Origin: Synergistaceae bacterium
Lineage (GTDB): Bacteria; Synergistota; Synergistia; Synergistales; Aminobacteriaceae
Reading direction: 5' to 3'
NCBI GenBank assembly: GCA_009783355.1
Contig: WRHH01000004.1
Span: forward strand, 32,852 to 96,851
Length of the DNA stretch: 64,000 bases
Shown here: positions 620-60,932 of the stretch, piece by piece
Layout of the letters: each line of letters begins with the position of its first letter
Numbering within the stretch: the stretch's first letter is position 1
Translations under genes and position numbers: made by a program
Notes under the pieces: model-generated
Told to the model about the DNA's origin: nothing
Seen by the model: only the letters and a program-made list of their open reading frames with translations
The model's database searches: none

Positions 620-620
620 A

Positions 621-1493: not shown

Positions 1494-2419
1494 ACTTTTT
1501 CCTCCGTCTCATGCCCGAGCAGTCCGTTCGGAAGCCATATGAGCAGGGCTATAAGGAGTGTGAAAGTGTACACGTCACGCCACACGCTGGAAATGTAAGC
1601 CGAAACGAAAGTCTCAAGCACTCCCAGTATGAGCCCCCCGATGAACGCGCCGGGAAGGCTGCCAAGCCCTCCTATGACGGCGGCAATATATGCTTTGTTG
1701 GTAATTGAGCCCATTGTTGGTTGCACGTAATACTTTATCCCGAGATATACTCCGGCTAACCCTGCGAAAGCCCCCGCGAGAAAGAAGACGACTGCTATAA
1801 GTCGATTTGTGTTCACTCCCATTAGGGAACACATTGTAAGATCGTCCACTCCTGCGCGTATTGCAATTCCAGTTCTCGTCTTCATTATGAATATGTGGAG
1901 GGCGTAAATCGAAAGCAGCGATATAACAAACGCCGCTAGGTCCAGTAAACTCAAAGTGATTCCCGCTATTTCGATCACACTATGTTCGGCTGCAAGACCG
2001 AGAAAGCTTATGATGTTTCTCACGATATCCAACACTTGATTTGTAATCTTATCCGGAAATGGATATGGTTTCGCTCCTATTGTCGCGTATACCATATTTT
2101 CAAGAAAGACTGCACAGCCCATGGCGCTTATCATAAGATAAAGCGAAGGCGCCCTCCTCTGGCGGAGCGCGCGGTAAGCGAGCCGCTCGTTGAGCACCGC
2201 AAGGACGCCTGCGCCCGCTATTGCTCCTGAAAGCACGAGGCCCAACCCGAGGTTCAATTTTGCGGCCAATCCGAGCCCCATATACGCTCCAAGCATAATA
2301 ACTGCTCCATGAGCAAAGTTACTGAACGATAACACGCTGAATACAAGCGAATATCCCACGGCCATCAGGGCATAAATTCCTCCGATGGACAGCCCTGTGA
2401 CAAGAGTTTGTAAAAACAA
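1490..2419 (-). CDS. livH: Branched-chain amino acid ABC transporter permease (LivH-like)
   Basis: 309-aa hydrophobic ORF overlapping livM by 4 bp. BPD transporter pattern. Confidence 0.75.
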   Translation of the reverse strand: MFLQTLVTGLSIGGIYALMAVGYSLVFSVLSFSNFAHGAVIMLGAYMGLGLAAKLNLGLGLVLSGAIAGAGVLAVLNERLAYRALRQRRAPSLYLMISAMGCAVFLENMVYATIGAKPYPFPDKITNQVLDIVRNIISFLGLAAEHSVIEIAGITLSLLDLAAFVISLLSIYALHIFIMKTRTGIAIRAGVDDLTMCSLMGVNTNRLIAVVFFLAGAFAGLAGVYLGIKYYVQPTMGSITNKAYIAAVIGGLGSLPGAFIGGLILGVLETFVSAYISSVWRDVYTFTLLIALLIWLPNGLLGHETEEKV

Positions 2420-2500
2420 AACGACAACTCCAATACAATAGTGTTTATAAATATAACGTTGTTATTATGCCACCAAGCGTTACAAATTACAAATTATAAA

Positions 2501-2962
2501 TTATCCAAACAACACAAGATACACGTTCATTTCATTCTCGTTTAAGAATTCATTTATTGTCGTCTCCGCGACATTCATCGCTTCATCTTTTGGATATCCG
2601 AAAATTCCCGATGAAATCAAAGGAAACGCTATCGATTCCAGATTATGCTTTTTTGCAAGCAGCAGCGAATTCCTGTAACAATTCCTGAGCAGTGTTTCTT
2701 CTCCATGTCCTCCGCCATGCCAAACCGGCCCGACGGTATGAATAATATGCTTTGCGGGAAGATTATAGCCTTTTGTTATCACAGCTTCTCCTGTCTTGCA
2801 TTCGCCTATTTTGTCGCATTCGCGTTGAAGTTCGTCCGCTCCGGCAGCAGCAAAAATGGCGCCGCATACGCCGCCTCCGCGTTTCAAGGCCTCGTTGGCT
2901 GCGTTCACTATAGCGTCGGTCTTTAGTTTCGTTATATCCCCTTTTATTATTTCAAACGGCAC
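2501..2962 (-). CDS. Macro domain protein (O-acetyl-ADP-ribose deacetylase, YmdB-like)
   Basis: 153 aa. Motifs [21 protein letters not shown] and [14 protein letters not shown] are diagnostic of macro domains. Confidence 0.8.
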
Positions 2963-2998
2963 AAAATCTCCCTCCTTTTGGAAAAAAGCTGCGGAGGA

Positions 2999-3184
2999 CT
3001 AATGCCCGCAGCCTGAACAACCTGAGCAATTACCGCCGCATGATTTTGAGGACTTAAGAGAAGCCCCTTCAATCAAAATAAGCGTCTTGCCTCTGCATTC
3101 AGGACACCTTATGGATAGTTGACATTCCGGTTGTTCAAATACGGCGCTGCATAGAGCGCACTTAAATACACGTTTTTCTCCCAT
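2999..3184 (-). CDS. FmdB-family-like zinc-ribbon protein with a Cys/Gly-rich tail
   Basis: 61 aa. CxxC..CPxC (FKCALC...CPEC) and a C-terminal CGGNCSGCSGCGH. Confidence 0.5.
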   Translation of the reverse strand: MGEKRVFKCALCSAVFEQPECQLSIRCPECRGKTLILIEGASLKSSKSCGGNCSGCSGCGH

Positions 3185-3201
3185 TCAAACTCCTCCATTG
3201 A

Positions 3202-4152
3202 TCATTGTATCGTCGCTACCATCACAGCCTTTATAGTGTGCATCCTGTTTTCGGCTTCGTCGAAAACTTTCGAGGCGGAAGATTCGAATACTTCTTCTGT
3301 TACTTCGTTTCCTTTCTCCGCTGGGAGGCAGTGTAAAAATATAGTATCGCCGCGACCGGTTGCGCTCATTAAATCCGTGTTCACCTGATATGGTCTTAAA
3401 AGTTTTACCCTTTTCTCCTTCTCGGCTTCCTCCCCCATTGACGCCCAAACATCTGCGTAAATTGCATCAGCGCCTTTTACTGCTTCTTTGGGATCATCGT
3501 AAACTTCTATGGCGCCTCCGCTTACTTCACAAAGCGCTTTACAGTCTGCAAGTATTTTTGGATCCGGGAACAAGCTCTTTGGCGATCCTACTGTATAGTG
3601 CATTCCAAGCTTTGAGCAGCCTATCATGAGGGCGTTTGACATGTTATTGCGTCCGTCTCCGACATAAGCGAGACGCACTCCTTTGAGGTTTTTACCGCTT
3701 GGAAGGCACTCCTGAAGCGTAAGGAAATCAGCCAATACCTGAGTAGGGTGATCCACGTCCGTCAATCCGTTCCATACAGGGACTCCCGACCATTGCGCGA
3801 GTTCTTCAACCATTGATTGTTTGAATCCTCTGAACTCGATTCCGTCAAACATTCTGCCCAGGACTCTTGCAGTATCCTTTACGTCTTCCTTGCCTCCAAG
3901 GTGAATATCATTTTTCCCCAGAAATTCCGGGTGTGCTCCTTCATCGACACATGCCACCACGAAAGCGCAACGTGTGCGCGTGGACGCTTTTTCAAAAAGC
4001 AGCGCTATGTTTTTGCCTTCAAGGAGGTTTCCGCGCGCGCCCGCGCGCTTTTTCGCCTTGAGATCGGCCGCGAGATCGAGAAGGTAAAGTATTTCTTCGG
4101 CGGAAAAATCCATTAACGTTAAAAAACTCTTTCCCTTAAGGTTGACTGGCAT
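3202..4152 (-). CDS. argF: Ornithine carbamoyltransferase
   Basis: STRTR carbamoyl-phosphate binding motif, HCLP motif, and SMG and DVW regions. Start at MPVNLKG, with a GGAGG RBS 9 nt upstream. The ORF-track M at 4194 is probably an upstream in-frame extension. Confidence 0.85.
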   Translation of the reverse strand: MPVNLKGKSFLTLMDFSAEEILYLLDLAADLKAKKRAGARGNLLEGKNIALLFEKASTRTRCAFVVACVDEGAHPEFLGKNDIHLGGKEDVKDTARVLGRMFDGIEFRGFKQSMVEELAQWSGVPVWNGLTDVDHPTQVLADFLTLQECLPSGKNLKGVRLAYVGDGRNNMSNALMIGCSKLGMHYTVGSPKSLFPDPKILADCKALCEVSGGAIEVYDDPKEAVKGADAIYADVWASMGEEAEKEKRVKLLRPYQVNTDLMSATGRGDTIFLHCLPAEKGNEVTEEVFESSASKVFDEAENRMHTIKAVMVATIQ

Positions 4153-4399
4153 TATTAGACCTCCATTTTCAATAATAACTGAATAATATCCCAAAAATGA
4201 CGCTTAGTCCAGAGAAGTCTTTGTATTCTCTGGCTATTCAGGGGAGAGCAATCGCGCGTTATCTGCATTTACGGCAATGCTTGTAAAATGATACAACTTA
4301 CTAAGCTGTTATAATCTTCATCCGATAAATATACTGCAATGAATGTGTTTTTTATATTGATCCACAGTAAAAAAAAACGATTGGTGGCGCTGATCATAA

Positions 4400-5221
4400 A
4401 TGAAAAATAAGAAACTCAATTACAGTGACTGCATTGAAATAGCTGAAGAAGTCTATTGGGTGGGTCTTTTTGATGAAACTGCTCCCATCACTAACAATCC
4501 ATATCTGATAGTGGATAATAAAGAGGCGGTTCTAATAGACGGAGGCAATCGGAATGAATTCAGCACGGTGATGTTAAAGATACTGCGCACAGGGGTCAAT
4601 CCGAAGAATATAACGAGGCTTATCTATCAGCATTACGACCCGGATTTGTGCGGAAGCCTTCCGCACATGGAAGAGGTAATCGGCAGCAAGGAACTGAAAA
4701 TCATATCTCATTACGAGAACAATGCCTTCATCAATTGTTATTCGTCAAAGACACCTAAACTGTGTATCGAAGATCTGAATTTCCGCTTCGATTTCTCAAG
4801 CGGGAGGCGCCTTGAATTTATCCGTACTCCTTATGCCCATACAGCCGGAAACTTTATTACTTATGACACAAAGACAAAGGTACTGTTCAGCAGCGATATA
4901 TTTGGAGGATTCGATTCCGATTGGAGCCTGTACACCCGGATTTTTGAACAGTGTGCAAGCTGCAGCCCGCTAAATATCTGCCCGGTTACTAATAGATTCT
5001 GTCAAATTAATGGTATTTGGGAATTCCACAAACGTGTTATGCCCTCGGTTAGAGCTTTACATTACGCTCTCAAACTGATAGAGGAAAAGGATGTATCGTT
5101 GATTGCGCCGCAGCATGGAAGTATTTTTCCAACTGATATAACCCAAGAAATAGTCATTGAGCAGTTAAGGTCACTAACAAAATTGGGAATTGATTATTTT
5201 CTTGAGAATAACGAATCATGA
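4400..5221 (+). CDS. Metallo-beta-lactamase-fold protein (flavodiiron-protein-like MBL domain only) with a Cys-rich insert
   Basis: 273 aa. HxHxD-like YQHYDPDLCGSLPH motif, the AHTAGN region typical of FprA/ROO MBL domains, and a CASCSPLNICPVTNRFC cluster. No flavodoxin domain. Confidence 0.6.
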   Translation: MKNKKLNYSDCIEIAEEVYWVGLFDETAPITNNPYLIVDNKEAVLIDGGNRNEFSTVMLKILRTGVNPKNITRLIYQHYDPDLCGSLPHMEEVIGSKELKIISHYENNAFINCYSSKTPKLCIEDLNFRFDFSSGRRLEFIRTPYAHTAGNFITYDTKTKVLFSSDIFGGFDSDWSLYTRIFEQCASCSPLNICPVTNRFCQINGIWEFHKRVMPSVRALHYALKLIEEKDVSLIAPQHGSIFPTDITQEIVIEQLRSLTKLGIDYFLENNES

Positions 5222-6099
5222 AGGACTTCATAGAGCTTTTTTCAGTATTGGATTCTGAACTGATAAAGACGCAAGCGGAAGAACATTCAAAGGTTGTGTT
5301 TGATTATTTTGCGGATCAGGTCGATAACAGTTTACAGAATGCCTTGGTTTCCGAACTGATTGTGAGATATGCGGATATGTCAAAACAATTGGAGGATAAG
5401 AACAAAACGCTTAGAAGATACAATGAGCATTTGGAAGAAATAGTCCAGGAAAAAGTAAATGAAATATCAGCTTCGCAGATTGCAACCATACACGCTCTTG
5501 TAAAGGCGGCCGAAACGCGTGATGACGATACAGGCGCTCATATTGAACGAACATCATTGTACTGTAGGGTATTGGCGGAAAAATTACGGGAAGCGGGAAT
5601 GTATAAAAGTATCATGAACGACGCTTTTGCCGAAAACATAGCAAGAGCCAGCCCCTTGCATGACATAGGCAAGATAGGAATAAGGGACTCGATTTTGCTA
5701 AAACCTGGCCCGTTGACAAGCGAAGAATTTGAGATAATGAAAACACATGTTATCATAGGACATGATACGCTTTCCAGCGTAGTAAAGATGCACCCGGGAA
5801 ACATGTTTCTGAAATTCGGTCTGGAAATCTCAATGTATCATCACGAAAAATGGGATGGTAGCGGGTATATGTACGGACGTTCCAAGGAGGATATTCCGCT
5901 GTCGGCTCGTATTATGGCTGTATCGGACGTGTACGACGCGTTACGGTCAAAGCGCGTATATAAAGAAGCTTATTCTCACGAGAAGACTATCAGTATCATT
6001 TCCGATGGAAGCGGATATGGTTTTGATCCTGCCCTGATTGAAGTTTTTCTAAGGCATAATCTATTATTTCGCGATATTTATAATAAATTATCCGGATAA
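5218..6099 (+). CDS. HD-GYP domain phosphodiesterase
   Basis: HDIGKIGI and HHEKWDGSGY (HD-GYP signature). N-terminal coiled-coil region of about 95 aa. Start overlaps the upstream stop (ATGA). Confidence 0.8.
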   Translation: MKDFIELFSVLDSELIKTQAEEHSKVVFDYFADQVDNSLQNALVSELIVRYADMSKQLEDKNKTLRRYNEHLEEIVQEKVNEISASQIATIHALVKAAETRDDDTGAHIERTSLYCRVLAEKLREAGMYKSIMNDAFAENIARASPLHDIGKIGIRDSILLKPGPLTSEEFEIMKTHVIIGHDTLSSVVKMHPGNMFLKFGLEISMYHHEKWDGSGYMYGRSKEDIPLSARIMAVSDVYDALRSKRVYKEAYSHEKTISIISDGSGYGFDPALIEVFLRHNLLFRDIYNKLSG

Positions 6100-28093: not shown

Positions 28094-28137
28094 GCAATGC
28101 ACAATGCACAATGCACAATGAAAGGCAAAAGATAAAG
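28094..28137. repeat. Heptamer array (GCACAAT x3-4) plus GAAAGGCAAAAGA box immediately after the dnaK stop
   Basis: gcaatgcacaatgcacaatgcacaatgaaaggcaaaagataaag. Confidence 0.7.
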
Positions 28138-37843: not shown

Positions 37844-38704
37844 TCATGATCCATTTTCAGCTTCAGTACCCCCACGCTGTATGAAATCAATTAGCTTTTT
37901 CGTAATGATATAAGGTAAAGCAGGTTTATCTATCTCCTTGATAACCTTTAAATATAAATCAGAGTCAATTGAATGTCCCAGTTTTTTTGCTGATTCCTTT
38001 AAGCGTTTTAGTTCATAATTTACTATTTTGTTAGTAATTTCGCGCTGTCTGCCTAGATGCAGCTTGTTTTGACTCATAATTAGTTCGTCGCGCATGACAT
38101 CGAAAAGAAATTTGTCGCGGTTTAGCCAATCTGCTAATATCTGCTCGTAATTGGTTATAATTAAGCTCTTTGTCATGTTATCTGATGCTACTGCGCATTG
38201 TAAGGCTGCATATATATAATTCACACATTCATCCACACCAGAACAAATATTTCTAATATATGACCCCCATTTATTCGATTGAAGCTGCGGAATACTGAAG
38301 AAAAACTCGTCTTGATCCATTTTAAAAAAATCGTGAACATCTGTCAGTATTTTCCTATTTTTGGAAAAAACATCAGCATTGACATTATGGCAATAAACAT
38401 ATCGTAAAGCATTTATCTTTTTAACATACTCTTCAACATAATCCATCTTTTGGTCGTTCAGGGAACCTTTATTATTCAGCATATTAAGTAATTTTTTTAT
38501 ATTAGGCATACAGTCAAAAAACAATCCATAGATATTAGTCACGGCGCACCAAAACAGTCCTTCGTCATTGCTACACTGATGTGCTTTTGGCGCGTAATAG
38601 GCAGCGAAAAAAAGACGCGGTGATAAATGGGATGCCATATATATATTTATTTCTTCAATTTTGCGTGTTGTAAATGCAACCCCATCTATGTAATTATCAC
38701 TCAT
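37844..38704 (-). CDS. Hypothetical 286-aa protein translationally coupled to the SIR2/NTPase gene
   Basis: Start ATG overlaps the upstream stop by 8 bp. No recognisable motif. AT-rich codon usage. Confidence 0.6.
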   Translation of the reverse strand: MSDNYIDGVAFTTRKIEEINIYMASHLSPRLFFAAYYAPKAHQCSNDEGLFWCAVTNIYGLFFDCMPNIKKLLNMLNNKGSLNDQKMDYVEEYVKKINALRYVYCHNVNADVFSKNRKILTDVHDFFKMDQDEFFFSIPQLQSNKWGSYIRNICSGVDECVNYIYAALQCAVASDNMTKSLIITNYEQILADWLNRDKFLFDVMRDELIMSQNKLHLGRQREITNKIVNYELKRLKESAKKLGHSIDSDLYLKVIKEIDKPALPYIITKKLIDFIQRGGTEAENGS

Positions 38705-41700
38705 TCGCTTGACCGTCTTTCGGAGTCAGCCCACGGAAAGCGGCAAGTCCCATGTAACCTAATCCAAGCTGAAAATCGTCGCATGACACACCACTTTTTA
38801 TTTCAATTCCTTTTATATTCCATTTGCGAAAATAAATATCCCTACCACCGTTATTATCTCTACTTATTCTTCCAATGCGGACATAATTACCGCTTAGAAC
38901 ATTATCTGGTGTGTTTTGGTTAAAATTACCGCTGAATTCTAAAGGCTTTCCTTTTTCGTCGCAAAGAATATGTTTTGTGCGGATACGATCATTGCCCCGT
39001 TGCTCAACTAATTCGGTACAATTGCGTATTTTGTTGATTGTTTGCCCGTAAGCACTGTATTGTTCTAGATGTAGGTTCGCTAATGCCATGACATAAAAGA
39101 ACAACAGCGTTTTTGGCGTGCAATCTTGATTTCCGCAAAAATCACGGCATACACCGAGTATATCTTTCCATTGGTCGTTTGTCATCGCAGTAAACTGTTC
39201 TTCAGCTGTAAAAATCGGCGTTTTATTATATGCAATCCATTTTAGTTTTAACCGTTGCCTCTGGCAGATATGATCTTTTATTGTTATTACAGCATATTCA
39301 TTCTCGTCATAATATTTCGCGCATATTTCACGGCATCTTAAAGCTTGGTCATTGTTGAATGCTTCAATTCGGTTTTCATACTCTCTTTGGCGTTTAGTAA
39401 TTCCAGCAGTCTCCATTTCTCTGGCCACTTTCAAATAGACAGCATATGGATTTCCATCAATAATGAGGCTATTAATATATTCATCACTTAAGGAAGAATC
39501 TATCTTTCTATAAATCCCTTCGGCAGGATTAATAAAATTCGAATCTTGTGCAACATAAACATACTCATCCTGAGTCTTTCGTATCAAATTATCAGCGGAA
39601 GCAAGCAATTCAACTGTTTTGGCCTGCGGCAATTTGTCGCAAAATTTCAAGGTAAGCCATAATTTAGTGCTGATAATATACCCGTTATCCGGTGCGTAGC
39701 CAAGCTGCTCGTCTAAATCCTTACTAAGTTCCATATATTCTCGTTCATCATATTTGTTTTCATACTCCATCAGATTTATGCAACAGTTTACCCTTTCAAC
39801 CACCAAGCTTGTAAGTAGACGTGACGAAATTTGTCCATGTCTCTTTTCAATTTGGATGGCTTCGTTGCAAATTATAACAGCATCACGTAACATTTTCTGT
39901 TTGTTGTCGTTTATGTGTCTATTCTCACTTTCTAGCATTTTTATATACTCGCGGATGTATGACGCCTCTTGCACCACGAGTGGCGATAATAGTGATCCTT
40001 GCTCTCGTGATTCGCGTAACGCATCAATTATCTTTTCATATTCCTCGGATGTCAAACGCTGAAAATCCTTGGAGTTTGGACCTATCCTAATCAACAACTT
40101 TACAATTAAGTTCACCTCGGTTTTATCATTGTAATTCAGGGTCATTATAATATTCACAATCTGGTTAACTTCTTCAGACTCAATTATCTTTTGTGACCGT
40201 AAATAAATCATTGCTTCGCCACGGGTTCTGAACCGTACAGCGTAATCGGAAAACTCATATTCGTCATATGTCAGATAAATCATGGATGAAAGCACTTCCT
40301 TTACCCGGTGATCATATAGATTTATCAGACGCAGTATAAGCGAAAAAGGCATGAAGAGGTCATATTTTGTGCATATGGCCGTGTTTACTAGTGCTTTCTT
40401 AATGTTATTAATAATTTTATCTTCGTCGTTATTTGTTTGCCCTTTTTCGTTTGTAATAAATCCTGAATTTTTTAAGGCTATTTTTATCTGGCTTGTTTCG
40501 TATTTTTCAGCAATAAGCTTTTCGACAAAATCTTTACTAGAATATTGAATTACATTCTCAATATAATTGCCCATACCTTTTTCAATCCCAAGTCGCGTGT
40601 CTGTGAGTGAGGTGTATAGGAACAGCATGAAATTATTACGCAATTCTTCTGATTTTTTAAGTTGTTCAATTACTTTGTCAATATACACCTGTTCCCATCG
40701 CGCTTTGCGACTAAGAATCTGCTTGAGATGGTTGATTTCAAGAGAATCATCACCCATATTCAATGATTTATTTGTTTCAAGGAACTGAAAATAGGTTTTT
40801 TTTACACTTTTTGTGATTTGTTGCGTCATATGCTCATCTATGCTTTCGTATTTGTCTGCGTTTTCATATGCAGTAAAAACAAATTGGACATTACGCGCGC
40901 GGGTATGCTTTATGTAGTTACATAAACTCCTGCATTTTAGCATGTCGCTGGTAAAAGCCGACAAATCCCAAATGACAAGTGAACACTTAGCTCCAATTTT
41001 TTCAAGCTGGTGTAAAACATTATCTAAGACATTCATTTCACCATCAGCATTCTCAATCCTTCCGCTTGGAGACATCATAACTTCGCGATGAAAATCTATG
41101 TCCTTTTTGTTTATAAAGATAACAGGGTATTCTTTTTCGTAAAAAACGCGGTATGCTAAGTAAGCAACTGCAACACTTTTACCACTACTTGGTTCTCCTT
41201 TAAGACATATCGGATAGTTATCTTGCTTTTTTTCTTCAGTACCGGGATTCTTTAGACCTTTATTCACTCGTTTGAACAATTCTTCATCGTGAGCTCGCAC
41301 TAAATTAAACTTATTCTTGTAACCGTACCATGCTGGGGAAGTGGTGCTCTCCTTTAAAAAACTGGAAAATTCTGTTTCTATGTATTGTGGAAGTACTATG
41401 CGCCTGTTAATTTCTTCTTCAGTCAGCAATGTTGCAAATTCATTGAAGCGCACCAAATCCTTTTTATCTATAAAGCAAGCTTTGCCAGCTACGTACACTT
41501 TTGTTTTGTCGCTTTCGTAATGAAGGCTATAGGAATTGTCATACTCGTCATTGACTGAGTCATCGGGTACGGTAAATTCTTCGCTTAAGCATAGTATTGG
41601 GGTGGGATCTTCGTTCTCCATGTCTCGTTCGGGTAATATTTCTTTTACTAGTATATCTTTGACACCAAAAAAGATAACAGAGCTGTCACGTTTTACACTA

Positions 41701-42152
41701 TAGAGGAAGTCTTGCATTTCGCTTGTAATAAATGCATCGTTTTCGGAATAGCCTACAAAGATGAAACTACCGCCATTCTTTAGCCTGTCATCAAGAACTC
41801 TTTCTAAAGCTTTTCGGGCTGTCTTTTGGTCGCGTTGAGATGGTTTTGCTCTTGATACTGATTCAATTTCCGGTGTTCCGAAAAGATAGCATATTTTTAG
41901 GTTTCGTTGCTTAGGAAAGCACGGATCGTCGATGGACACCAATCTCACTTGTCTGTATGAAGGAAGGGCTTTTGTTACGGCGTTACACAACGCCAAATCT
42001 CGTTGCGAAGTTATAATGAGCCACCATTTCTGCTTGAGGATGCGCAAGTTTTCTTCATTTGCTAAGTCAAAACTCTCGCCGACAAACAACACGTGCGGTT
42101 CTGAATCTAAGTTGTCCAGAATTCTACTGGAAATATCCTTTACGTTTTGCAT
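38697..42152 (-). CDS. 1151-aa protein with an N-terminal SIR2-like domain, a central P-loop NTPase and a C-terminal helical region (candidate antiphage defence NTPase, SIR2-STAND-like)
   Basis: N-terminus HVLFVGESFD...LIITSQRD...IFVGYSENDAFI (SIR2_2-like). Walker A GEPSSGKS near residue 320, and hhhhD Walker B LVIWDLSAF. The remaining roughly 700 aa are helical. Confidence 0.65.
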   Translation of the reverse strand: MQNVKDISSRILDNLDSEPHVLFVGESFDLANEENLRILKQKWWLIITSQRDLALCNAVTKALPSYRQVRLVSIDDPCFPKQRNLKICYLFGTPEIESVSRAKPSQRDQKTARKALERVLDDRLKNGGSFIFVGYSENDAFITSEMQDFLYSVKRDSSVIFFGVKDILVKEILPERDMENEDPTPILCLSEEFTVPDDSVNDEYDNSYSLHYESDKTKVYVAGKACFIDKKDLVRFNEFATLLTEEEINRRIVLPQYIETEFSSFLKESTTSPAWYGYKNKFNLVRAHDEELFKRVNKGLKNPGTEEKKQDNYPICLKGEPSSGKSVAVAYLAYRVFYEKEYPVIFINKKDIDFHREVMMSPSGRIENADGEMNVLDNVLHQLEKIGAKCSLVIWDLSAFTSDMLKCRSLCNYIKHTRARNVQFVFTAYENADKYESIDEHMTQQITKSVKKTYFQFLETNKSLNMGDDSLEINHLKQILSRKARWEQVYIDKVIEQLKKSEELRNNFMLFLYTSLTDTRLGIEKGMGNYIENVIQYSSKDFVEKLIAEKYETSQIKIALKNSGFITNEKGQTNNDEDKIINNIKKALVNTAICTKYDLFMPFSLILRLINLYDHRVKEVLSSMIYLTYDEYEFSDYAVRFRTRGEAMIYLRSQKIIESEEVNQIVNIIMTLNYNDKTEVNLIVKLLIRIGPNSKDFQRLTSEEYEKIIDALRESREQGSLLSPLVVQEASYIREYIKMLESENRHINDNKQKMLRDAVIICNEAIQIEKRHGQISSRLLTSLVVERVNCCINLMEYENKYDEREYMELSKDLDEQLGYAPDNGYIISTKLWLTLKFCDKLPQAKTVELLASADNLIRKTQDEYVYVAQDSNFINPAEGIYRKIDSSLSDEYINSLIIDGNPYAVYLKVAREMETAGITKRQREYENRIEAFNNDQALRCREICAKYYDENEYAVITIKDHICQRQRLKLKWIAYNKTPIFTAEEQFTAMTNDQWKDILGVCRDFCGNQDCTPKTLLFFYVMALANLHLEQYSAYGQTINKIRNCTELVEQRGNDRIRTKHILCDEKGKPLEFSGNFNQNTPDNVLSGNYVRIGRISRDNNGGRDIYFRKWNIKGIEIKSGVSCDDFQLGLGYMGLAAFRGLTPKDGQANE

Positions 42153-53324: not shown

Positions 53325-54601
53325 ATATGAGCGCAAGTATTTTAATGAAACTCAAAGTATTTACCCATTATCTGCCGCTTCTCCTCAAGGGCGAAATGTC
53401 ATTCAGGCGTTTTGTTGCGTTTATGCGTAGGATGTCGTTTTTCCTCTCGAAAATGGGTCATAATAAATTTGTCAAATTTAACGGAGGCACGCGGTTCGGT
53501 TTCTATATCCCGACTTACCCGTCGAGGGCTTTTTGCACGACGACGGATAAATTCAGGACTTTCGAAGGTAAATTTCCATGTATCAACGTTCTCCTGTCCG
53601 TTACGTCGGCGTGTATGCACAAATGCGAGTATTGCTATCAGAGGCGGGACGCAGGCGCGGACATGGATCTTGACTTGCTTATAGCAACGGCGCGGAAACT
53701 TCAGGATATGGGTATAGCGCTTTTCAGTATTGAGGGCGGCGAGCCGTTTCTGAGGTACGACAGGCTGAAAGCTTTGTGCAACGCTATCGATGACCGTTCG
53801 GAGATTTGGGTCAACTCAAACGGCTGGGGCATGACCGTAGAGAGATTAAAAGAGCTCCGGATAGCAGCTGTGACTTTTTCTCTGCACCATCCCGAGCCCG
53901 AGGCTTTTAACAAGTTCATGGGGAACGAGCAGGCATGGGCCCACATGGAACAAGGCATCAAAGCGTGCCATGAAGCGGGCGTCCCCGTGACGTTCAACAC
54001 CTGTCTGATGAAAGAGGCGTTCTACGACGGAACTTTCGAGAAGGTCATGGATTACGCAAAAGAACAGGGAGTCCTGATGATACAGTTGATAAAACCAAAA
54101 CCTGCGGGCGGCTGGCTCTTAAATGACGAACTCCTCTTTTCGGAGGAGGACATGAAGGCTGCAAAAGTGAAGATCCACATGTACAATAAGGACAAAAAGT
54201 ACTCGGCGTTCCCCGCTATCAGCGCGCAAATAATCGAAGAGCAGCCGGACGTGTTTGGCTGCACTGCGGGCGGTACGGACAGGTTTTATATTAACGCAAA
54301 GGGCGACGTCCAGCCGTGCGAGTTTCTGAACATCTCGTTCGGCAATATCGCAGACGAAAAATTCGAGGACATCTACGACAGGATGAGAGCATGTTTTGAA
54401 ACTCCGGGAGAACGCATCCTGTGCGAAGAGGCGGCAAAAAAGATAGCAGCGCTATACAAACAGCATAATTTGAACTCCCTGCCGCTTCCGCCCGAACTCT
54501 CGAAGCAGGTCTACGAAGAATGGGACAGAGGCGCGGCAACGGAGTTGTATAGAATAACAGTTGCGAGTGGCGAGTTGCGAGTTGCGAGTGAAAGACCTTA
54601 A
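53321..54601 (+). CDS. Radical SAM protein with SPASM-like C-terminal domain
   Basis: CMHKCEYC (CxxxCxxC). C-terminal Cys cluster GCTAGGTDRFYINAKGDVQPCEF. The last 13 codons (VASGELRVASERP) are encoded by the heptamer array. Confidence 0.75.
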   Translation: MNMSASILMKLKVFTHYLPLLLKGEMSFRRFVAFMRRMSFFLSKMGHNKFVKFNGGTRFGFYIPTYPSRAFCTTTDKFRTFEGKFPCINVLLSVTSACMHKCEYCYQRRDAGADMDLDLLIATARKLQDMGIALFSIEGGEPFLRYDRLKALCNAIDDRSEIWVNSNGWGMTVERLKELRIAAVTFSLHHPEPEAFNKFMGNEQAWAHMEQGIKACHEAGVPVTFNTCLMKEAFYDGTFEKVMDYAKEQGVLMIQLIKPKPAGGWLLNDELLFSEEDMKAAKVKIHMYNKDKKYSAFPAISAQIIEEQPDVFGCTAGGTDRFYINAKGDVQPCEFLNISFGNIADEKFEDIYDRMRACFETPGERILCEEAAKKIAALYKQHNLNSLPLPPELSKQVYEEWDRGAATELYRITVASGELRVASERP

Positions 54602-54686
54602 AAACAGTTGCGAGTTGCGAGTGGCGAGTGAAAGGCAAAAGACAGAGGCAAGAGGCTTCCATTGAACATTGTGCATTGAACATTGA
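54559..54686. repeat. Heptamer arrays (GTTGCGA/GTGGCGA x about 8; CATTGAA x4) with a GAAAGGCAAAAGA box
   Basis: gttgcgagtggcgagttgcgagttgcgagtgaaagacc...gttgcgagttgcgagtggcgagtgaaaggcaaaagacagagg...cattgaacattgtgcattgaacattgaa. Confidence 0.7.
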
Positions 54687-55141
54687 AAGCTATTGATTAT
54701 GCAAAGAATAACAGATACCTTAAAAATACTTATGCTATTGAGGAACTGGACAATCTCTCGAAATGGGGTAAAAAAACTAATTTATTTATAGTGATATTCG
54801 TTTACGTTTTACTGTTAGTATTGTTTGTGTGGATTATAAGGCTTATCAGCCGTTACTGGGATAAAGAAACAACGAAGTTTGTGCTGTGCAGTTTTTCGAC
54901 TTTTGCGATTATGGGACTACTATTTTATCTTTTCAGAGCGTCGTATGTTTATTTCGATTTGTCAGGAGTATTAACAGCTAGCTCGTTGACCCTAGGACTT
55001 ATGTTGATGATATCTAAGCTCGCGGGATGGAAAAATGTGAAGAAGTTTATATTGCATTGTTTCCTGATTCTTGTGATTGGGACGCTGACTTATATGTCAT
55101 ACATTATTTATGTAATTATCCATACTTTGATGGGTTTTTGA
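54683..55141 (+). CDS. Hypothetical membrane protein
   Basis: 152 aa, 4 TM segments. Confidence 0.4.
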   Translation: MKAIDYAKNNRYLKNTYAIEELDNLSKWGKKTNLFIVIFVYVLLLVLFVWIIRLISRYWDKETTKFVLCSFSTFAIMGLLFYLFRASYVYFDLSGVLTASSLTLGLMLMISKLAGWKNVKKFILHCFLILVIGTLTYMSYIIYVIIHTLMGF

Positions 55142-55175
55142 CGTCATTTTCCAACCCTTAACAAAATATTCCCGC

Positions 55176-55236
55176 CCCCTTGACAACATTTAAGACGAGT
55201 GTATTATATAGTATAAGGCGTATGTCTTAGATATTA
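55176..55236 (+). promoter_or_regulatory. Promoter/operator-like region, copy 1 of a duplicated pair
   Basis: cttgacaacatttaagacgagtgtattatatagtataaggcgtatgtcttagatattaatggaggtgg parallels the region upstream of blaI at 56040..56108. Inverted taagac...gtctta. Confidence 0.45.
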
Positions 55237-55971
55237 ATGGAGGTGGAAATTATGTACACTGCTAAGAGAAAAATAATCATGGCAATATTTTGCACGGCGC
55301 TGCTCGTTGCCTTCGGGGCGGGTTTTGCGGGTCGAAGTTCGGCAGCGGTAGGAGACGTTATCAAACTCGGCGGATTTGATTGGCGCGTGCTCGAAGTGAA
55401 GGATGGAAACGCCCTCATCATAAGCGACAAAATATTGTCGAAGGGCGCGTACAATATACCGGATAAAGGTGTGTTGTACGATTCATTGGGTTCAGTCTGG
55501 CAGGATACCCCCGTTAAATGGGAAGAATGTACTTTGCGGCAATATCTGAACGGGCAGTTTTATGATTCGACTTTCTCAAATGAAGAAAAGGGACGAATAG
55601 TCGAGACGACGATAGTAAACAATGATAACCCATGGTTCGGTATGGCGGGCGGTAACGACACCACGGACAAAGTGTTTTTGTTGAGCCTTGAGGAAGTAGT
55701 GTTATATTTCGGCGACAGCGGAGAATTGGGGAACCGGCCAAAAGACGCTGACACTATAAACGACAGCTTCAATGAGAAGAGGATTGCAGAAACGCTGGAC
55801 GGCAATGCTTGCAGATGGCTTCTTAGGTCTCCCGGCCTCTTTCACCGCATGTGCGACAGCAACCACGTCTATGCCGGTTGTGTCGCTGTGAACGGATATC
55901 TCTCCGTAATAGGCGAATATGTCCATAATGAATACAGCGGGATTCGCCCCGCGATGTGGATAAAACAATAA
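55237..55971 (+). CDS. Secreted paralog of the BlaR1-like sensor domain (DUF6273-like extracytoplasmic domain)
   Basis: Signal peptide. About 60% identity to residues 340-548 of the 56480 gene. Shared blocks include GDVIKLGGFDWRVL, SNEEKGRIVET, KVFLLS, WLLRSPG and RPAMW. Confidence 0.65.
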   Translation: MEVEIMYTAKRKIIMAIFCTALLVAFGAGFAGRSSAAVGDVIKLGGFDWRVLEVKDGNALIISDKILSKGAYNIPDKGVLYDSLGSVWQDTPVKWEECTLRQYLNGQFYDSTFSNEEKGRIVETTIVNNDNPWFGMAGGNDTTDKVFLLSLEEVVLYFGDSGELGNRPKDADTINDSFNEKRIAETLDGNACRWLLRSPGLFHRMCDSNHVYAGCVAVNGYLSVIGEYVHNEYSGIRPAMWIKQ

Positions 55972-55980
55972 AGACAAAGC

Positions 55981-56019
55981 ACAATGCACAATGTTCAACG
56001 ATTGTGCATTGTTTTTTTT
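55981..56019 (+). terminator. Strong rho-independent terminator built from the GCACAAT heptamer and its inverted copy
   Basis: acaatgcacaat-gttcaacg-attgtgcattgt, then TTTTTTTT. Confidence 0.85.
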
Positions 56020-56108
56020 GATAATGATATAAGACATACGTCATTTTCTATTACTTGACAACATTATAAGACATATGTATTATATGTAACAAATGGAGGT
56101 GGTTTTAT

Positions 56109-56480
56109 ATGAGGAAACTGCCGGATGCGGAGTTTGACATCATGAAAGTGGTTTGGGCAAACGAACCGCCAATCACTACATCCGAAATAATGAAGCAACT
56201 GGGAAATGAAAAGGAGTGGAAGATACAGACCATCGTTTCGCTGATGCTCCGACTGGTTGAAAGGGGCTTTTTGCGCTCGGAAAAACACGGCAAGGAACGC
56301 ACGTATTTTCCGTTGGTGGGCAAGGAGGAATATCTCAAATTTGAGACGGGTAATTTCATCAGGAACTTCCACAATAATTCGTTCCTCAATCTCGTCACAA
56401 CCTTGTATGACGGCGAAACGCTCTGCGAGGAAGATATCAGCGAATTATTAAAATGGGCTAAAGAACGGGGAGAGAAATAA
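56109..56480 (+). CDS. blaI: BlaI/MecI/CopY-family transcriptional repressor
   Basis: 123 aa. LPDAEFDIMKVVWANEPPITTSEIMKQL winged-helix N-terminus. Confidence 0.8.
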   Translation: MRKLPDAEFDIMKVVWANEPPITTSEIMKQLGNEKEWKIQTIVSLMLRLVERGFLRSEKHGKERTYFPLVGKEEYLKFETGNFIRNFHNNSFLNLVTTLYDGETLCEEDISELLKWAKERGEK

Positions 56481-58126
56481 TGCAGGGCTTTATCGTCACA
56501 TTGATGATTTGTTCGGTCACCATGTCGATGATTGCGCTCGTTTACATGGCAGCATCCCCGTTTCTGGCGAAACGATATTCCGCGAAATGGCGCTATTATA
56601 CATGGCTCGTCGTTGTTATTGGGCTTATTATCCCATTCCGGCCGCAATGGGGCAGCGCCGTTATCCGGGTTTTTATCCCGGGCGAAAATGCACCCGTCAT
56701 TCAGGTAGGAAGCCGGATAGTCGCCGGGCAGATTGAGAGCCAAATATCAGTACAGATAGAGAGCGAAGCTGATGTTTCCACCACGCTCACGGTTGGAAAA
56801 ACAGCGGTTCCCTCATTTTGGCGGCTTGTTCCGTGGTGGAGGATAGCGGCGGCGGTATGGCTGGCTGGATTGATGGTTACCCTCGTTTATCACATAATAA
56901 AATACTATTGCTTTGCGAAAATGGTGAGGCGCTGGAGCGAAAAGGCCACGAACGAAAAAACGCTTGACTTGCTGCAAAGACTGAAATCCGAGATGGGAAT
57001 ATTAAAGCCCATCGGCCTTTATCAGTGCCCGTGCATTGGCAGCCCTATGATGATAGGATTAACAAATCCACGAATACTACTGCCGAAAACCGGTATAAAG
57101 CAAAATGAACTCCACTTTATCCTCAAACACGAGCTTGTGCATTTAAAGCGGAATGACCTGTACTACAAATGTCTGGTACTTGCCGCAACCGCCATTCATT
57201 GGTTCAATCCTTTCGTCTATATTATTGCAAAAGCAATTGAAGTGCAATGTGAATTGTCCTGCGACGCCGAGACAGTGCGAAGCGCTGACGCTGGAACGCG
57301 CCGACATTACACCGAAGCTATTATCAGTTTTGTGAAATATAGTTCAAATCTGAATACAGCATTATCGACTAATTTTCAAAGAGGCCGAAAAGGCATGATG
57401 AAAAGGATATTTTCCATCATGGACACCGGCAATAAAAAGGCAGGTATCGCAATCTTCTGTGCTGCGCTGCTCGTCACTCTTGGAACGGGCTTTGCCGTCT
57501 GCTACGGCGCCCCGTATTCAGAGACGACTGTTGGCAGCGTTATGAAGCTCGGTGGGATTGACTGGCGCGTGCTTTTGGTGAAGGATGGAAAAGCCTTGGT
57601 TTTGAGCGATAAAATATTGTCGAAAAGGGCGTACAATGCGTCGGTTAATGACTGGCCGAATGGAACTGTGACATGGGAAGAATGCGATTTACGGCGTTAT
57701 CTGAACGGACAGTTTTTCGACACCGCCTTCTCAAATGAGGAAAAGGGGCGAATCGTCGAAACTGTGCTTGATAACAATAATAACCCCTGGTTTGCAACGG
57801 CGGGCGGTAGCGCTACCAAAGACAGAGTGTTTTTGCTGAGCATTGAGGAAGTTGTGCAATATTTGGGTAACAACGAGAAACTTGAAGCCCGGAATGACGG
57901 AACGTTTTTAATAAGTGACCGGTTCAATGAGAGACGAATAGCGCAAACGCTGGACGGCGAAGAGTGGAGATGGCTCTTACGGTCGCCCGGAATTTTATAT
58001 TACTCGTGCGGCGCCGCCCACGTCCATGCTGCTTGCGTCGCGGCAAACGGCGATCTGTCCGTTAGCGGCGAATACGTTAACAACAGCGGCGGCGGCGTTC
58101 GTCCCGCGATGTGGTTGACAATGTAA
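56480..58126 (+). CDS. BlaR1/MecR1-like M56 peptidase signal transducer. Its extracytoplasmic sensor is a DUF6273-like domain rather than a penicillin-binding domain.
   Basis: N-terminal TM segments, and HELVHLKRND (HExxH of M56). The C-terminal 210 aa are paralogous to the 55237 gene product. Confidence 0.75.
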   Translation: MQGFIVTLMICSVTMSMIALVYMAASPFLAKRYSAKWRYYTWLVVVIGLIIPFRPQWGSAVIRVFIPGENAPVIQVGSRIVAGQIESQISVQIESEADVSTTLTVGKTAVPSFWRLVPWWRIAAAVWLAGLMVTLVYHIIKYYCFAKMVRRWSEKATNEKTLDLLQRLKSEMGILKPIGLYQCPCIGSPMMIGLTNPRILLPKTGIKQNELHFILKHELVHLKRNDLYYKCLVLAATAIHWFNPFVYIIAKAIEVQCELSCDAETVRSADAGTRRHYTEAIISFVKYSSNLNTALSTNFQRGRKGMMKRIFSIMDTGNKKAGIAIFCAALLVTLGTGFAVCYGAPYSETTVGSVMKLGGIDWRVLLVKDGKALVLSDKILSKRAYNASVNDWPNGTVTWEECDLRRYLNGQFFDTAFSNEEKGRIVETVLDNNNNPWFATAGGSATKDRVFLLSIEEVVQYLGNNEKLEARNDGTFLISDRFNERRIAQTLDGEEWRWLLRSPGILYYSCGAAHVHAACVAANGDLSVSGEYVNNSGGGVRPAMWLTM

Positions 58127-58393
58127 CCCCGTCAGCATATGGGAAAAATATCTACAAAATAAAGGCCGTGAACCTGACAGTGACGTTGCCGGGTTGGCTG
58201 GATAAAGAAGCGAAATTTGCCTATTTAAATTATTCACAAATTTAATACCCGATTGAGAACACCAATAGGGATTTTTGTATTTTGAGCATGAATATATGTG
58301 TCGTAATTCAGTGTACAAAAATAGCGGATGGCGATTGCGGGGTTGTTTTTCCAGTCAATCAGGGCGTTGCTTAATCCAGCAGTGGGTGACAAA

Positions 58394-60932
58394 TCACACC
58401 AACTTCCTCTCTGCGGCTATCCTTATTACATCCGCAATATTGCAGGCGTTCAGTTTTTCGTAAATGCTGTTAATGTATAGCTTGACCGTATTGATTGACA
58501 AATTTTGGTTCGTGGCAATTTCTGAGCGGGAAAGACCGTGGTACATATCGCGCAGGACGTCGCTTTCGCGCGATGATAAAACCGCCTCGCCGTCTTCGTT
58601 GTTTGCCTTTTTGTAGTCGAAAATCAACGTCCCCTGATGCTTGGCATACGAGGTGGATTTACGCCCTACCTCCTCCAGCCACGGCTTGGGAATGTTGTAA
58701 TCCGGCTCGCGCAACGCAGTTGCTGTAAGCGTGCGCATGTCCTTGCCCAGCTCTATGAATGGCATCAGTATGACGTTGGGGAACGCGTTTGCATAAGCTT
58801 CCTGAAGCGCAGCTAGTGCTTTAGTTTTATCTTTCATTTTTAGATATACGCAAGCTTCCATAGACAGCATTTCTACACGTCCGTACAAAATCGATTCCCT
58901 CCGCTTCAGCTCCTCCATGTAAGCGAGAAGCTGGGCGTAATTCTTTGTAAGATAACAATAGCGTGCCTTCACTTGGTTTGCGAAGTTTTCTATGAAATAC
59001 GCGTGCCCGTAGGGCGTAAATTTTTCCTTGAGCCAACCCGGTATCCTCTCCGGTTGGCAAAGCGCATAGTAATACCAGCCCAGAGCGATATCGTATGTGG
59101 TGAAACGCATAGTATACTCATTTTCGTCGAGTAATGTCTCCATGTCCGAGAGCGCCTCCGCCGCATGAGCGCAGTTTCCTTGCGAAACGGCAATACGCAT
59201 GAGGTAAAATAGCCCCCTGTGCGCAAGTTCATACTGTTTGCTCTCTCTCGCCCGCTTAAGGCCGCGAACGAGCAATGGGCCCGCCGCGCGAACGTCGCCT
59301 TGGTAGAACAATAACTCGCCCAGAGTCAAATCATCCTTGCCTTCCATGCATCCGTAGAGGCAGTGCGACGTATGCTTCATTGCAATGGTTGAAGCTTCAA
59401 TGTATTTGCCGGGGCGCCCCGTTCGGCAGATCCCGCCAGATTTATCCACGGGCCGACGGGATGGTTGGCCAACTGCCCGGGCGCAATTGGAGACTGGGTC
59501 AGGCATTCGTCCTGCTTGGCAAAATACAAATGAAAATCGTAGCGGTCGTTCGTAGTACACATCAGCGACCGTAATATTCCCCAGCAATAGTATATGCTGC
59601 CAAGAGAATGGTTTCTGAACTCGTCATCTACGGGCAGAAGCAGGAATTTCGCCTCGTAACGCGCCATTAACTCAAACGCTTCCTGCCACTTGCCAAGGCA
59701 CATGACGACGCGCACGCGCATCACTGCAAGAAAGCTCACCCGGTCGAACGCTTCCGGCGGCGCCCTGTTAAAAATAAGTTCCGCATATTGTGCGATATCG
59801 AGAGGAACCTGCGAAGGAAGCTCAAAGAAAATGGACACGATGGAGTCGTAGTCCCCAACATTTTCGTAATAGGTCATGGCGTCAATTTTAAAACCGTTTT
59901 GGTTGCACCAGTCCGCCGCTGCCTGATAGGTCGCCCGCTTTTCCTCTTCGGTCAGGATATCCTGCTTCGCGCGCAGGAAGTCCAGAAACAGGTGGTGTAT
60001 CATGTATGCGTTTATGTAGCTGTCAAAACGAACAAAAGCGTTTTGTCGCCTCAGCTCTTCCAGAAGGTTTACATCCCCTTTGGCCAAAATAGCGACCAAC
60101 TCAGCCGAAAGGTGATCCACCAAGGATAGGCAGACTAAAAAATGCCGAAGCTGCTCAGAAATTATATTGAATACCTCAATTTCCATCAATTGGAAAATGT
60201 TGCTTCTCATCGCGTTGCGGACATAACCTGAATAACCGGGCGACTTGCGGAGCGATCGCGCGATAAAATTCACGGCAAACGCCCAGCCATTTGTATCCTG
60301 AAAAATCTCTCTCAAGCTTCGCTTTTCAACGGACAATCTCTGTAGGGAGAGATATTGTGTCAGTTCGCTTTCCGTGAAATTCAGATTCTCTTCGCTTATG
60401 CTGTGGACAAGGTCTTTTGCCTGCAGTCCGGCGAGATTGATTTGCGGCGATGATCGGCATATAAGGATTAAGGTTCTGTTCTCCGGCATTGAATATATAG
60501 CCCGCTCCATAAAAGAAGTTACAGCAGGATCTTTCAGAACGTGAAAGTCGTCCAGCACAACCATGTAATGTTCGTTGGGTATGCCGCGATCGCGTAAGCG
60601 GAAGAACTGGTTCAATTTATCTTCCGTATCAGGGAATCCGAGTTCCTTGAAGTCCTCGGATAGAGATCTGCTCACCTGCAAGAACGAGCGGACGTAGTTT
60701 TCCCAGAAACGCGATCCTACGTTGTCGCGCTCCGAAAGCTGCACCCACGCGGCAGTGACTTTATGCTTCCGCATGTAATCAGAAACCGCGCGCGTTTTGC
60801 CGTAGCCTGACCCGGCGCACACTATTACCAGAGGTTTTTAGCCGCCTGAGCTAAAACCGCGCTGATGCGCGGACGAACTAAATAATCGGTGTTGTCCGAC
60901 TGCCATACATCATCCATTACAAAAGACCCCAT
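58394..60932 (-). pseudogene. MalT/LuxR-family large ATP-dependent regulator disrupted by at least two frameshifts
   Basis: Three consecutive frames, upstream to downstream on the minus strand. Frame 1: MGSFVMDDVWQ...RPRISAVLAQAA. Frame 2 (GTG ORF 59377..60822): KPLVIVCAGSGYGKT (Walker A). Frame 3 (58394..59587): TPR-like region and a C-terminal LuxR HTH LSRSEIATNQNLSINTVKLYINSIYEKL. Confidence 0.6.

Follow-up and report, generated by a model that had tools for sequence, protein, structure and literature searches.

The sensor of the M56 zinc protease BlaR1 resembles class D beta-lactamases (PMC7593790). In a 2026 study of about 15,000 M56 BlaR-like proteins, comprising 254 architectures and located near a BlaI gene in 96% of the cases, only about 6% carry a transpeptidase domain; the common M56 architectures that it lists do not include DUF6273, and the signal activating the system studied was not found (PMC13492132). 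That the main output of a BlaIR-like system can be an exported protein is known from the CenIR pair of Clostridioides difficile (PMC13492132). With regard to operators, the BlaI proteins of Clostridium thermocellum bind inverted GTCTAT or GACTAT repeats, always as two pairs, according to DNA affinity purification sequencing and electrophoretic mobility shift assays (PMC8457756). We describe here a locus of three genes at positions 55180-58126 (+ strand) of a 64-kb stretch of DNA, referred to as the window, from a metagenome-assembled genome labeled Synergistaceae, a diderm lineage. A gene for a free-standing DUF6273 protein is followed by a gene for a BlaI-type repressor and by a gene for an M56 (BlaR1-type) protease that ends in a DUF6273 sensor; GenBank labels the three products DUF6273 domain-containing, BlaI/MecI/CopY family and M56 family metallopeptidase, respectively. 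We consider it rather probable that the locus is a BlaI/BlaR1-family regulated-proteolysis switch with a C-type-lectin-like DUF6273 sensor, whose regulated output comprises the switch itself and an exported free version of the sensor domain. The preliminary description of this DNA had presented the non-penicillin sensor as its headline novelty, a claim that the survey figures given above do not sustain since such sensors are the norm in the M56 BlaR-like family. The novelty lies in the pairing of a rare lectin-like sensor with an apparently co-regulated free paralog of traceable origin.

The signaling machinery of the locus is of the canonical type. The BlaR-like protein (548 aa) matches Peptidase_M56 (PF05569) over residues 7-310 and DUF6273 (PF19789) over residues 369-547. 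Its HELVH motif and E258 (in CELSCD) align to HEYAH and to the Glu of NEVEAD in Staphylococcus aureus BlaR1 (PDB 8exp), a residue that we take to be the third zinc ligand. The loop STNFQRGRKGMMKR, located before the fourth transmembrane helix (TM4), aligns to SHSFNGKKSLLKRR of the same structure, which includes F284, mutated in PDB 8exs/8ext, and is presumably the autocleavage loop of BlaR1; judged from this alignment, the autocleavage-loop region is conserved in the BlaR-like protein. AlphaFold2 places transmembrane helices at residues 2-32, 35-50, 119-152 and 321-341, with the protease between TM3 and TM4 and DUF6273 after TM4, and the best Foldseek matches of the full-length model are the BlaR1 cryo-EM structures 8exp/8exr (N-terminal module). 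Pfam, the BlaR1 alignment and the predicted topology therefore all confirm the BlaI/BlaR1-type system, with its M56 HExxH motif and transmembrane region, recognized in the preliminary description, every listed sequence feature of which is present. The repressor matches Penicillinase_R (PF03965) with 91.5 bits against a cut-off of 22.6, and its residues 4-114 align to MecI (1okr), in keeping with the winged-helix N-terminal domain and the C-terminal dimerization domain of BlaI/MecI/CopY repressors. N82-F83 is found opposite the K-N-F residues of MecI, which we assume to be the MecI cleavage position, and is probably the scissile site. Identification as a CopY/TcrY copper repressor (TIGR02698) was rejected, the score being 70.8 bits against a cut-off of 121.95 and the C-terminal tail carrying a single Cys; the repressor scores under both the CopY and the BlaI equivalog cut-offs. 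At the level of sequence, the catalytic and cleavage motifs of protease and repressor are thus conserved. The genes blaI and blaR share 1 nt, with the repressor gene upstream, which is the BlaIR-family arrangement in the broad sense, and this gene order is identical in all related loci.

Assignment of the sensor to DUF6273, the family proposed in the preliminary description for a hidden Markov model (HMM) search, is based on a Pfam match above the gathering score and on a C-type-lectin-like core fold, predicted by AlphaFold2 with a local confidence score (pLDDT) of 91.5 and retained above 90 in the full-length model. Sensor and free copy display the same fold, which is not a penicillin-binding fold. 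An ordinary beta-lactam-sensing BlaR1 with a diverged penicillin-binding domain would account for the BlaR1-like N-terminal half of the protein. The NCBIfam model NF000326 (blaR1_generic) is however matched only at positions 2-301 of 585, with 136 bits against a cut-off of 400, and its sensor half has no match in the BlaR-like protein, whose C-terminal domain is DUF6273 instead of a class D beta-lactamase-like penicillin-binding domain. No beta-lactamase or penicillin-binding protein gene was identified among the annotated neighbors (43.4-51.4 kb and 52.3-63.8 kb of the window) either, so that this explanation can practically be dismissed and the earlier statement that the sensor is not a beta-lactam acylation domain is upheld.

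DUF6273 is a very large family, with 17,295 cluster representatives at E <= 1e-3, many of which are multi-copy surface proteins. It also occurs as the extracellular part of a Ser/Thr kinase (Pkinase plus two DUF6273 domains) and behind an N-terminal zinc-ribbon module (protein clusters P0274 and P0264). The kinase fusion indicates that the domain serves as a sensor module elsewhere, and DUF6273 appears to be a sensor or ligand-binding module in other signaling architectures too. The domain is known as the N-terminal, C-type-lectin-like part of the Thomasclavelia ramosa immunoglobulin A (IgA) protease (PDB 9qa6), where it is dispensable for catalysis (PMC12237041). In Faecalibacterium phages, diversity-generating retroelements (DGRs) act on DUF6273 domains, and the region that they vary lies in a C-terminal hairpin (PMC10743442, PMC11792537). 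Involvement of a DGR at the present locus was considered and rejected: blastn of both 3' ends against the window retrieves only the other paralog (70% identity) and no template repeat. A Cys-x4-His-x4-Cys cluster is observed in the C-terminal beta-hairpin of both proteins (MCDSNHVYAGC in the free copy, SCGAAHVHAAC in the sensor; window positions 55840-55900 and 58000-58060). Together with the cysteine of a WEEC motif, it is kept in several M56-fused and adjoining free copies and is absent from the family consensus; judged from the residues, it may form a metal site or a disulfide. A structural zinc site is present in the solved domain of the IgA protease.

The evidence for common control of the free gene and of blaI-blaR resides in their upstream regions. 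The two promoters, U1 and U2, are the two best sigma-70 matches in 54500-58500. The sequence CTTGACAACATT is found exactly twice in the window, at 55179 and 56054, that is, once per upstream region, and the same is true of AATGGAGGTGG, at 55236 and 56092. A search of the window for TAAGACn4GTCTTA with at most two mismatches returns four 16-bp dyads, all of them in the two promoter regions of roughly 60 bp; first-order Markov simulation predicts about two per 64 kb, at random positions. The duplicated promoter and operator reported in the preliminary description are therefore both recovered. Comparison with related loci, designated by L numbers, is more telling. The blaI promoters of 17 loci follow the template TTGACA-n5-TTAAGAC-n4-GTAWTATAT-(3-9 nt)-(A/T)AAG(G/A)C-n4-GTCTTA-RBS-ATG...KKLPDAE, where RBS is the ribosome-binding site, and these loci mostly encode M56 proteins with other sensors (template or close variant in L002-L004, L006, L124, L125, L130, L132, L136, L138-L140, L142, L148, L150, L151, L157, L164 and L165). 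U1, the promoter of the free gene, fits this two-dyad blaI template exactly. U2, the actual blaI promoter of the window, has kept only the spacer dyad, its second dyad being located upstream. In L010, dyads of another type, AGTCTA..TAGACT, occupy the same positions in the blaI promoter and in that of the first free DUF6273 gene. Such co-variation is as expected of a shared repressor. The AGTCTA/TAGACT type is also found 5' of the free gene of L009, and the half-sites of L012 are GACTA/TAGTC. Shared control of the free gene and of blaI-blaR by BlaI, proposed earlier from the window, is thus strongly supported by sequence comparison, notably by the canonical promoter at U1 and by the shared dyad type of L010, and BlaI would be expected to bind the dyads of U1 and U2.

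The free open reading frame (ORF; 55237/55252-55971) matches DUF6273 (PF19789) with an E value of 5e-32. Its product, previously described as a stand-alone paralog at about 60% identity, is 57% identical to the sensor over 246 aa (E 1e-85). This alignment begins ahead of TM4, the last transmembrane helix of the M56 protein, and the apparent N-terminal signal peptide of the free protein is therefore homologous to TM4. The start codon is probably ATG 55252, giving 239 aa, a form identical to GenBank MCL1875085.1 and also used by the metagenome gene call; ATG 55237, proposed by the ORF lister, belongs to the RBS sequence AATGGAGGTGG. A hairpin and T-run terminator separates the free gene from blaI, making it a transcription unit of its own. 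Of the earlier designation of the protein as a secreted copy, the N-terminal hydrophobic helix stands; secretion itself is uncertain because a helix derived from TM4 could either be cleaved off as a signal or anchor the protein in the membrane. Export, in one form or the other, would be expected.

The canonical blaI promoter at U1, together with an instructive relative, L094, reveals how the free gene originated. L094, which shares its sample of origin with the 64%-identical fusion P0002, displays in succession a canonical blaI promoter with both dyads, what remains, without a start codon, of about the first 15 codons of blaI (KLPDAELGII), a new RBS and a 226-aa free DUF6273 gene with a TM4-like N-terminus. 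The deletion is cleaner in the window, where the TM4-sensor part follows the blaI RBS directly. By these sequence features, the free gene derives from a duplicate blaIR operon in which the segment from the start of blaI to about codon 312 of blaR was deleted while the promoter and operators were retained. Two blaI-M56 pairs stand in tandem on one contig in L132 and L138-L142 (about 700-5900; sensors of about 805 and 609 aa), which shows directly that entire blaIR operons undergo tandem duplication in these genomes. No similarity was seen between the DNA following blaR and that following the free gene, looked for as a mark of tandem duplication. A clean evolutionary route is thereby outlined, and caught in L094, by which a sensor domain becomes a regulated output of its own pathway through operon duplication and a promoter-keeping internal deletion.

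So clear an origin by duplication and internal deletion would also suit a functionless leftover of a partial operon duplication. The ORF is nevertheless intact and retains all the invariant core residues of the DUF6273 family, it is served by a strong promoter, an RBS and a terminator of its own, and independent lineages with another signal type show the same arrangement. The ratio of nonsynonymous to synonymous substitution rates (dN/dS) is 0.23-0.34 for all pairs, and about 0.24 for the free copy both against the sensor and against its orthologs. The free copies are therefore maintained by purifying selection, and a leftover is very improbable.

The distribution of the fusion and of its free companions was examined by an HMM census of 172 fetched loci. 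The M56-DUF6273 fusion is rare: eight clusters (P0001-P0007 and the partial P0130) were found among 5.8 billion sequences, along with two more distant ones (P0314 and P0360), and other C-termini are found in hundreds of M56 proteins with 50-60% identity in the protease half. The fusion loci were grouped into nine lineages (window/L001, L002/L003, L004, L005/L093, L006, L007, L009, L010/L011 and L012-L015), six of which have enough flanking DNA to be judged; the contigs of L005/L093 and L007 are too short, and the probable free gene of L006 starts at the contig end. An adjoining free DUF6273 gene is present in at least four of the six informative lineages, upstream in the window and downstream in L002/L003, L009 and L010/L011 (two genes in the latter), and L006 is probably a fifth lineage of this kind. 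Among about 25 M56 loci with other sensors, no nearby DUF6273 gene and no paralog of their own sensor was observed. The free copies of L002, L003, L009 and L010 are lipoproteins with acidic linkers and without a TM4-like helix, so that tethered free copies arose by at least two routes. Some candidates were discarded. The metagenome matches L112, L113, L144 and L147 have a fusion-like query coverage and no M56 domain, and the 243-aa gene downstream of the L012 system is not a DUF6273 gene. A profile search of genome contigs with the fusion alignment returned almost only DUF6273 proteins, the DUF6273 motif having been chosen; its sole fusion, L015, is the same system as L012. In L010, an ORF of more than 1750 aa (70-5328) runs off the contig directly upstream of the blaI-blaR-DUF6273-DUF6273 cluster.

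The recurrent pairing of sensor and free copy, as well as the homology to TM4 of the N-terminal helix in the free proteins of the window and of L094, also suits a co-receptor or modulator. Rather than being an output, the free protein would bind the BlaR sensor and present the ligand to it, in the manner of the periplasmic binding proteins of some kinases, or would insert its TM4-like helix into a BlaR dimer, tuning or blocking the signal. S. aureus BlaR1 was solved with C2 symmetry (description of 8exp) and is hence a homodimer; this dimer is domain-swapped. However, a mechanism based on TM4 could not be general, given the lipoprotein nature and the long acidic linkers of the free copies listed above, and the sensor is also found alone (L004, L012). 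We regard a co-receptor as unlikely, without being far-fetched.

Several observations weigh against the reading of the free copy as the output of the switch. Two of the six informative fusion lineages, L004 and L012-L015, have no adjoining free copy. The free gene adjoining the fusion in L002, L003 and L006 has a long upstream region with another conserved element and without a BlaI-type dyad, so that not every free copy is under the control of BlaI. The search for further operators covered 64 kb of genome. The full-length AlphaFold2 model has a predicted template modeling score (pTM) of only 0.55 with a disordered extracellular loop 1 (EL1), and its inter-domain geometry is unreliable; since the pLDDT of EL1 (residues 67-107) is below 50, this also applies to the docking of EL1 on the sensor seen in S. 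aureus BlaR1, for which the model was inspected. Lastly, the hairpin corresponding to the DGR-variable, ligand-contacting region is the most divergent stretch between free copy and sensor, with about 5 of 15 residues identical, and the two may for this reason bind different ligands, as far as sequence can tell.

This divergence of the putative ligand-binding hairpin, the very large number of surface modules in the DUF6273 family and the different upstream elements of the L002/L003 free genes would all be accommodated if the free protein were an independent surface binding protein or adhesin. It would have inherited the blaI promoter while its target differs from the sensed signal, and the switch would only time its display. 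An adjoining sensor paralog is found solely with DUF6273-type sensors, though, which argues for a functional tie, and free and fused copies interleave in the tree, the free copy of L008 being 82% identical to the L005 sensor. We accordingly give an independent adhesin as little credit as the co-receptor. Concerning the upstream element itself, a conserved stretch, TAGATTTTCACCGCTCCGGCTCCCGATTGTTTCGAAAATCTATTGCACGGCAC, spans about 50 nt 5' of the lipoprotein-type free genes (L002 6640-6720, L003 5620-5700 and L006 2375-2430) and contains a 9-bp inverted repeat. An Rfam search of these long upstream regions gave nothing above noise, and the element could be the site of another regulator or an alternative-sigma promoter.

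Returning to the free copy as a regulated output, the most likely course of events is that an extracytoplasmic ligand triggers cleavage of BlaI and thereby induces a free binding domain. The mechanism can be summarized as follows. Without signal, BlaI dimers would occupy two dyads at each of the two strong promoters, over the spacer and -10 and at a flanking site, and both the free gene and blaI-blaR would be repressed. An extracytoplasmic ligand, probably a glycan or a protein surface and not a beta-lactam, would then bind the sensor domain. The signal would be transmitted via TM4 to the M56 zinc protease, which would cut its own conserved loop and then BlaI, probably at N82-F83. Both promoters would open and more sensor and repressor would be made. 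After induction and export, the free domain would bind that ligand, or one related to it, on the cell surface or in the periplasm; the effect would be sequestration or capture of the ligand, or else negative feedback that dampens the signal. That the free domain binds the inducer is suggested by the parallel with the bla system, whose sensor and output share both a fold class and a ligand; proteolysis upon ligand binding, export of the free protein and its binding target are predicted elements of this scheme.

The preliminary description had envisaged the free domain as a decoy or co-sensor, a role that may be conjectured from the arrangement. A more specific version can be offered tentatively, as a possibility well short of probable: the sensor would detect a harmful extracellular binder or ligand, and the cell would flood its surface or periplasm with free binding domains in order to soak it up. 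Such an inducible self-decoy would be a non-enzymatic counterpart of BlaZ, created repeatedly by blaIR duplication and deletion from promoter to TM4. If so, candidate ligands would include bacteriocins, receptor-binding proteins of phages, and lectins or glycans from a host or from microbes, and the soluble copy would be a bait for the first non-beta-lactam, non-metal ligand of a BlaR-family sensor. To our knowledge, no ligand is known for any other non-penicillin BlaR-like sensor. The system offers in this respect a confidently folded lectin-like sensor along with a naturally soluble or exported paralog as a purifiable ligand probe. The predicted regulon is simple, being limited to the system and its paralog, and has well-defined operators, and the very large, uncharacterized DUF6273 family is given a signaling role.

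Table 1. Features of the DUF6273 locus and their positions in the 64-kb window
Feature	Position	Strand	Remarks
Promoter U1 of free DUF6273 gene	55180..55207	+	-35 TTGACA 55180-55185, 16-nt spacer, -10 TATTAT 55202-55207; sigma-70 match 11/12
Dyad O1a, operator-like, TAAGACGAGTGTATTA	55191..55206		Over spacer and -10; 1 mismatch to TAAGACn4GTCTTA; position as in 17 blaI promoters of this type
Dyad O1b, operator-like, TAAGGCGTATGTCTTA	55214..55229		Around predicted transcription start; 1 mismatch; equals second dyad (A/T)AAG(G/A)Cn4GTCTTA of related blaI promoters
RBS GGAGG of free gene	55239..55243	+	Inside AATGGAGGTGG, found also upstream of blaI
Free-standing DUF6273 protein (C-type-lectin-like, predicted exported), 239 aa	55252..55971	+	N-terminal helix homologous to BlaR TM4
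Intrinsic terminator of free gene	55981..56020	+	12-bp stem, then T run
Dyad O2a, operator-like, TAAGACATACGTCATT	56030..56045		Just 5' of blaI -35; 2 mismatches; 80% complementary to O1b region
Promoter U2 of blaI-blaR	56055..56083	+	-35 TTGACA, 17-nt spacer, -10 TATTAT; sigma-70 match 11/12
Dyad O2b, operator-like, TAAGACATATGTATTA	56067..56082		Over spacer and -10; 1 mismatch; palindrome around ACATATGT
BlaI/MecI-family winged-helix repressor, 123 aa	56109..56480	+	PF03965 E 6e-26
BlaR1-type N-terminal module (blaR, 56480-58126)	56480..57526	+	TM1-3, M56 gluzincin domain (HELVH 217-221, E258), loop region STNFQRGRKGMMKR, TM4 (about 321-341); PF05569 E 1e-53
Extracytoplasmic DUF6273 sensor domain of BlaR-like protein, residues about 350-548	57527..58126	+	PF19789 E 1e-31 at 369-547

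No second DUF6273, M56 or BlaI gene is found in the window beyond these three, and the flanking genes are ordinary chromosomal ones (Liv-type ATP-binding cassette transporter, UbiA, aminotransferase, epimerase, radical S-adenosylmethionine (SAM) protein and PurD). The PADLOC defense models gave no relevant match. A functional link to the neighboring radical-SAM/SPASM gene was considered, such a gene being also present near L009, and rejected as an apparent coincidence since the two proteins are only 19% identical. Directly 5' of the free-gene promoter lies a 152-aa hydrophobic ORF with a TTG start (54683-55141, + strand), devoid of Pfam, NCBIfam or PADLOC match and absent from the related loci except L001, which is the same sequence as the window. 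Heptamer tandem repeats are located at or just after the 3' end of the radical-SAM gene, (AGTTGCG)n at 54559-54629 and (CATTGAA)n at 54660-54687, and a similar run, (CATTGTG)n, is found at 28095-28118. The 17 nt at 54662-54678 are the exact reverse complement of 55982-55998, one arm of the free-gene terminator, and the two inverted copies bracket the 152-aa ORF and the free DUF6273 gene. Convergent with blaR, a MalT-like LuxR-family regulator (58394-60822, - strand) is divided between two overlapping ORFs, one with the MalT N-terminal part (59377-60822) and one with TPR_MalT and GerE (58394-59587), probably as a result of a frameshift, a pseudogene or an assembly error. Further away, a 1151-aa ORF (38697-42152, - strand) has no Pfam match at E <= 1e-4.

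The locus can finally be compared to the systems described so far. With BlaI-BlaR1-BlaZ and MecI-MecR1-MecA of S. aureus and Bacillus licheniformis it shares a repressor gene directly 5' of, and overlapping, the gene of a sensor with four transmembrane helices and an M56 zinc protease, the conserved HExxH motif and Glu, the autocleavage-loop region and the N-F pair of the repressor, and the presence of dyads both in the promoter of the repressor itself and in that of a separate output gene. As in the bla system, the sensor is related by fold to the exported output protein. It differs from both in that their sensor is an acyl-enzyme with a penicillin-binding protein fold whereas the present one is a C-type-lectin-like DUF6273 domain, in that the output is a non-enzymatic binding domain and a direct paralog of the sensor, and in the dyads, which are of the TACA/TGTA type there and TAAGACn4GTCTTA-like here. 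The sites of C. thermocellum BlaI_0696 and BlaI_1845 are inverted repeats in two pairs upstream of their targets (PMC8457756), comparable to the two dyads per promoter here, with half-sites GTCTTA/TAAGAC in the window, AGTCTA/TAGACT in L009 and L010 and GACTA/TAGTC in L012; exact half-site and spacing differ between their operators and the dyads predicted here. CenIR of C. difficile, and the M56 BlaR-like proteins lacking a transpeptidase domain, resemble the present system in being a BlaIR-family pair with a non-beta-lactam sensor (PMC13492132). The sensor region of CenR is however largely disordered, whereas a confidently folded domain is predicted here, and the CenIR output is not a paralog of the sensor. 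Synechocystis PetR/PetP also combines a BlaI-like repressor and a BlaR1-like protease for a non-beta-lactam signal (described in PMC7896320), but responds to copper, controls the plastocyanin/cytochrome c6 switch and has neither a lectin-like sensor nor a sensor paralog. The DUF6273 domains of the T. ramosa IgA protease and of the phage DGR systems, for their part, belong to a secreted protease or to phage receptor-binding proteins and are not signaling sensors, unlike the domain that here ends the BlaR-like protein.

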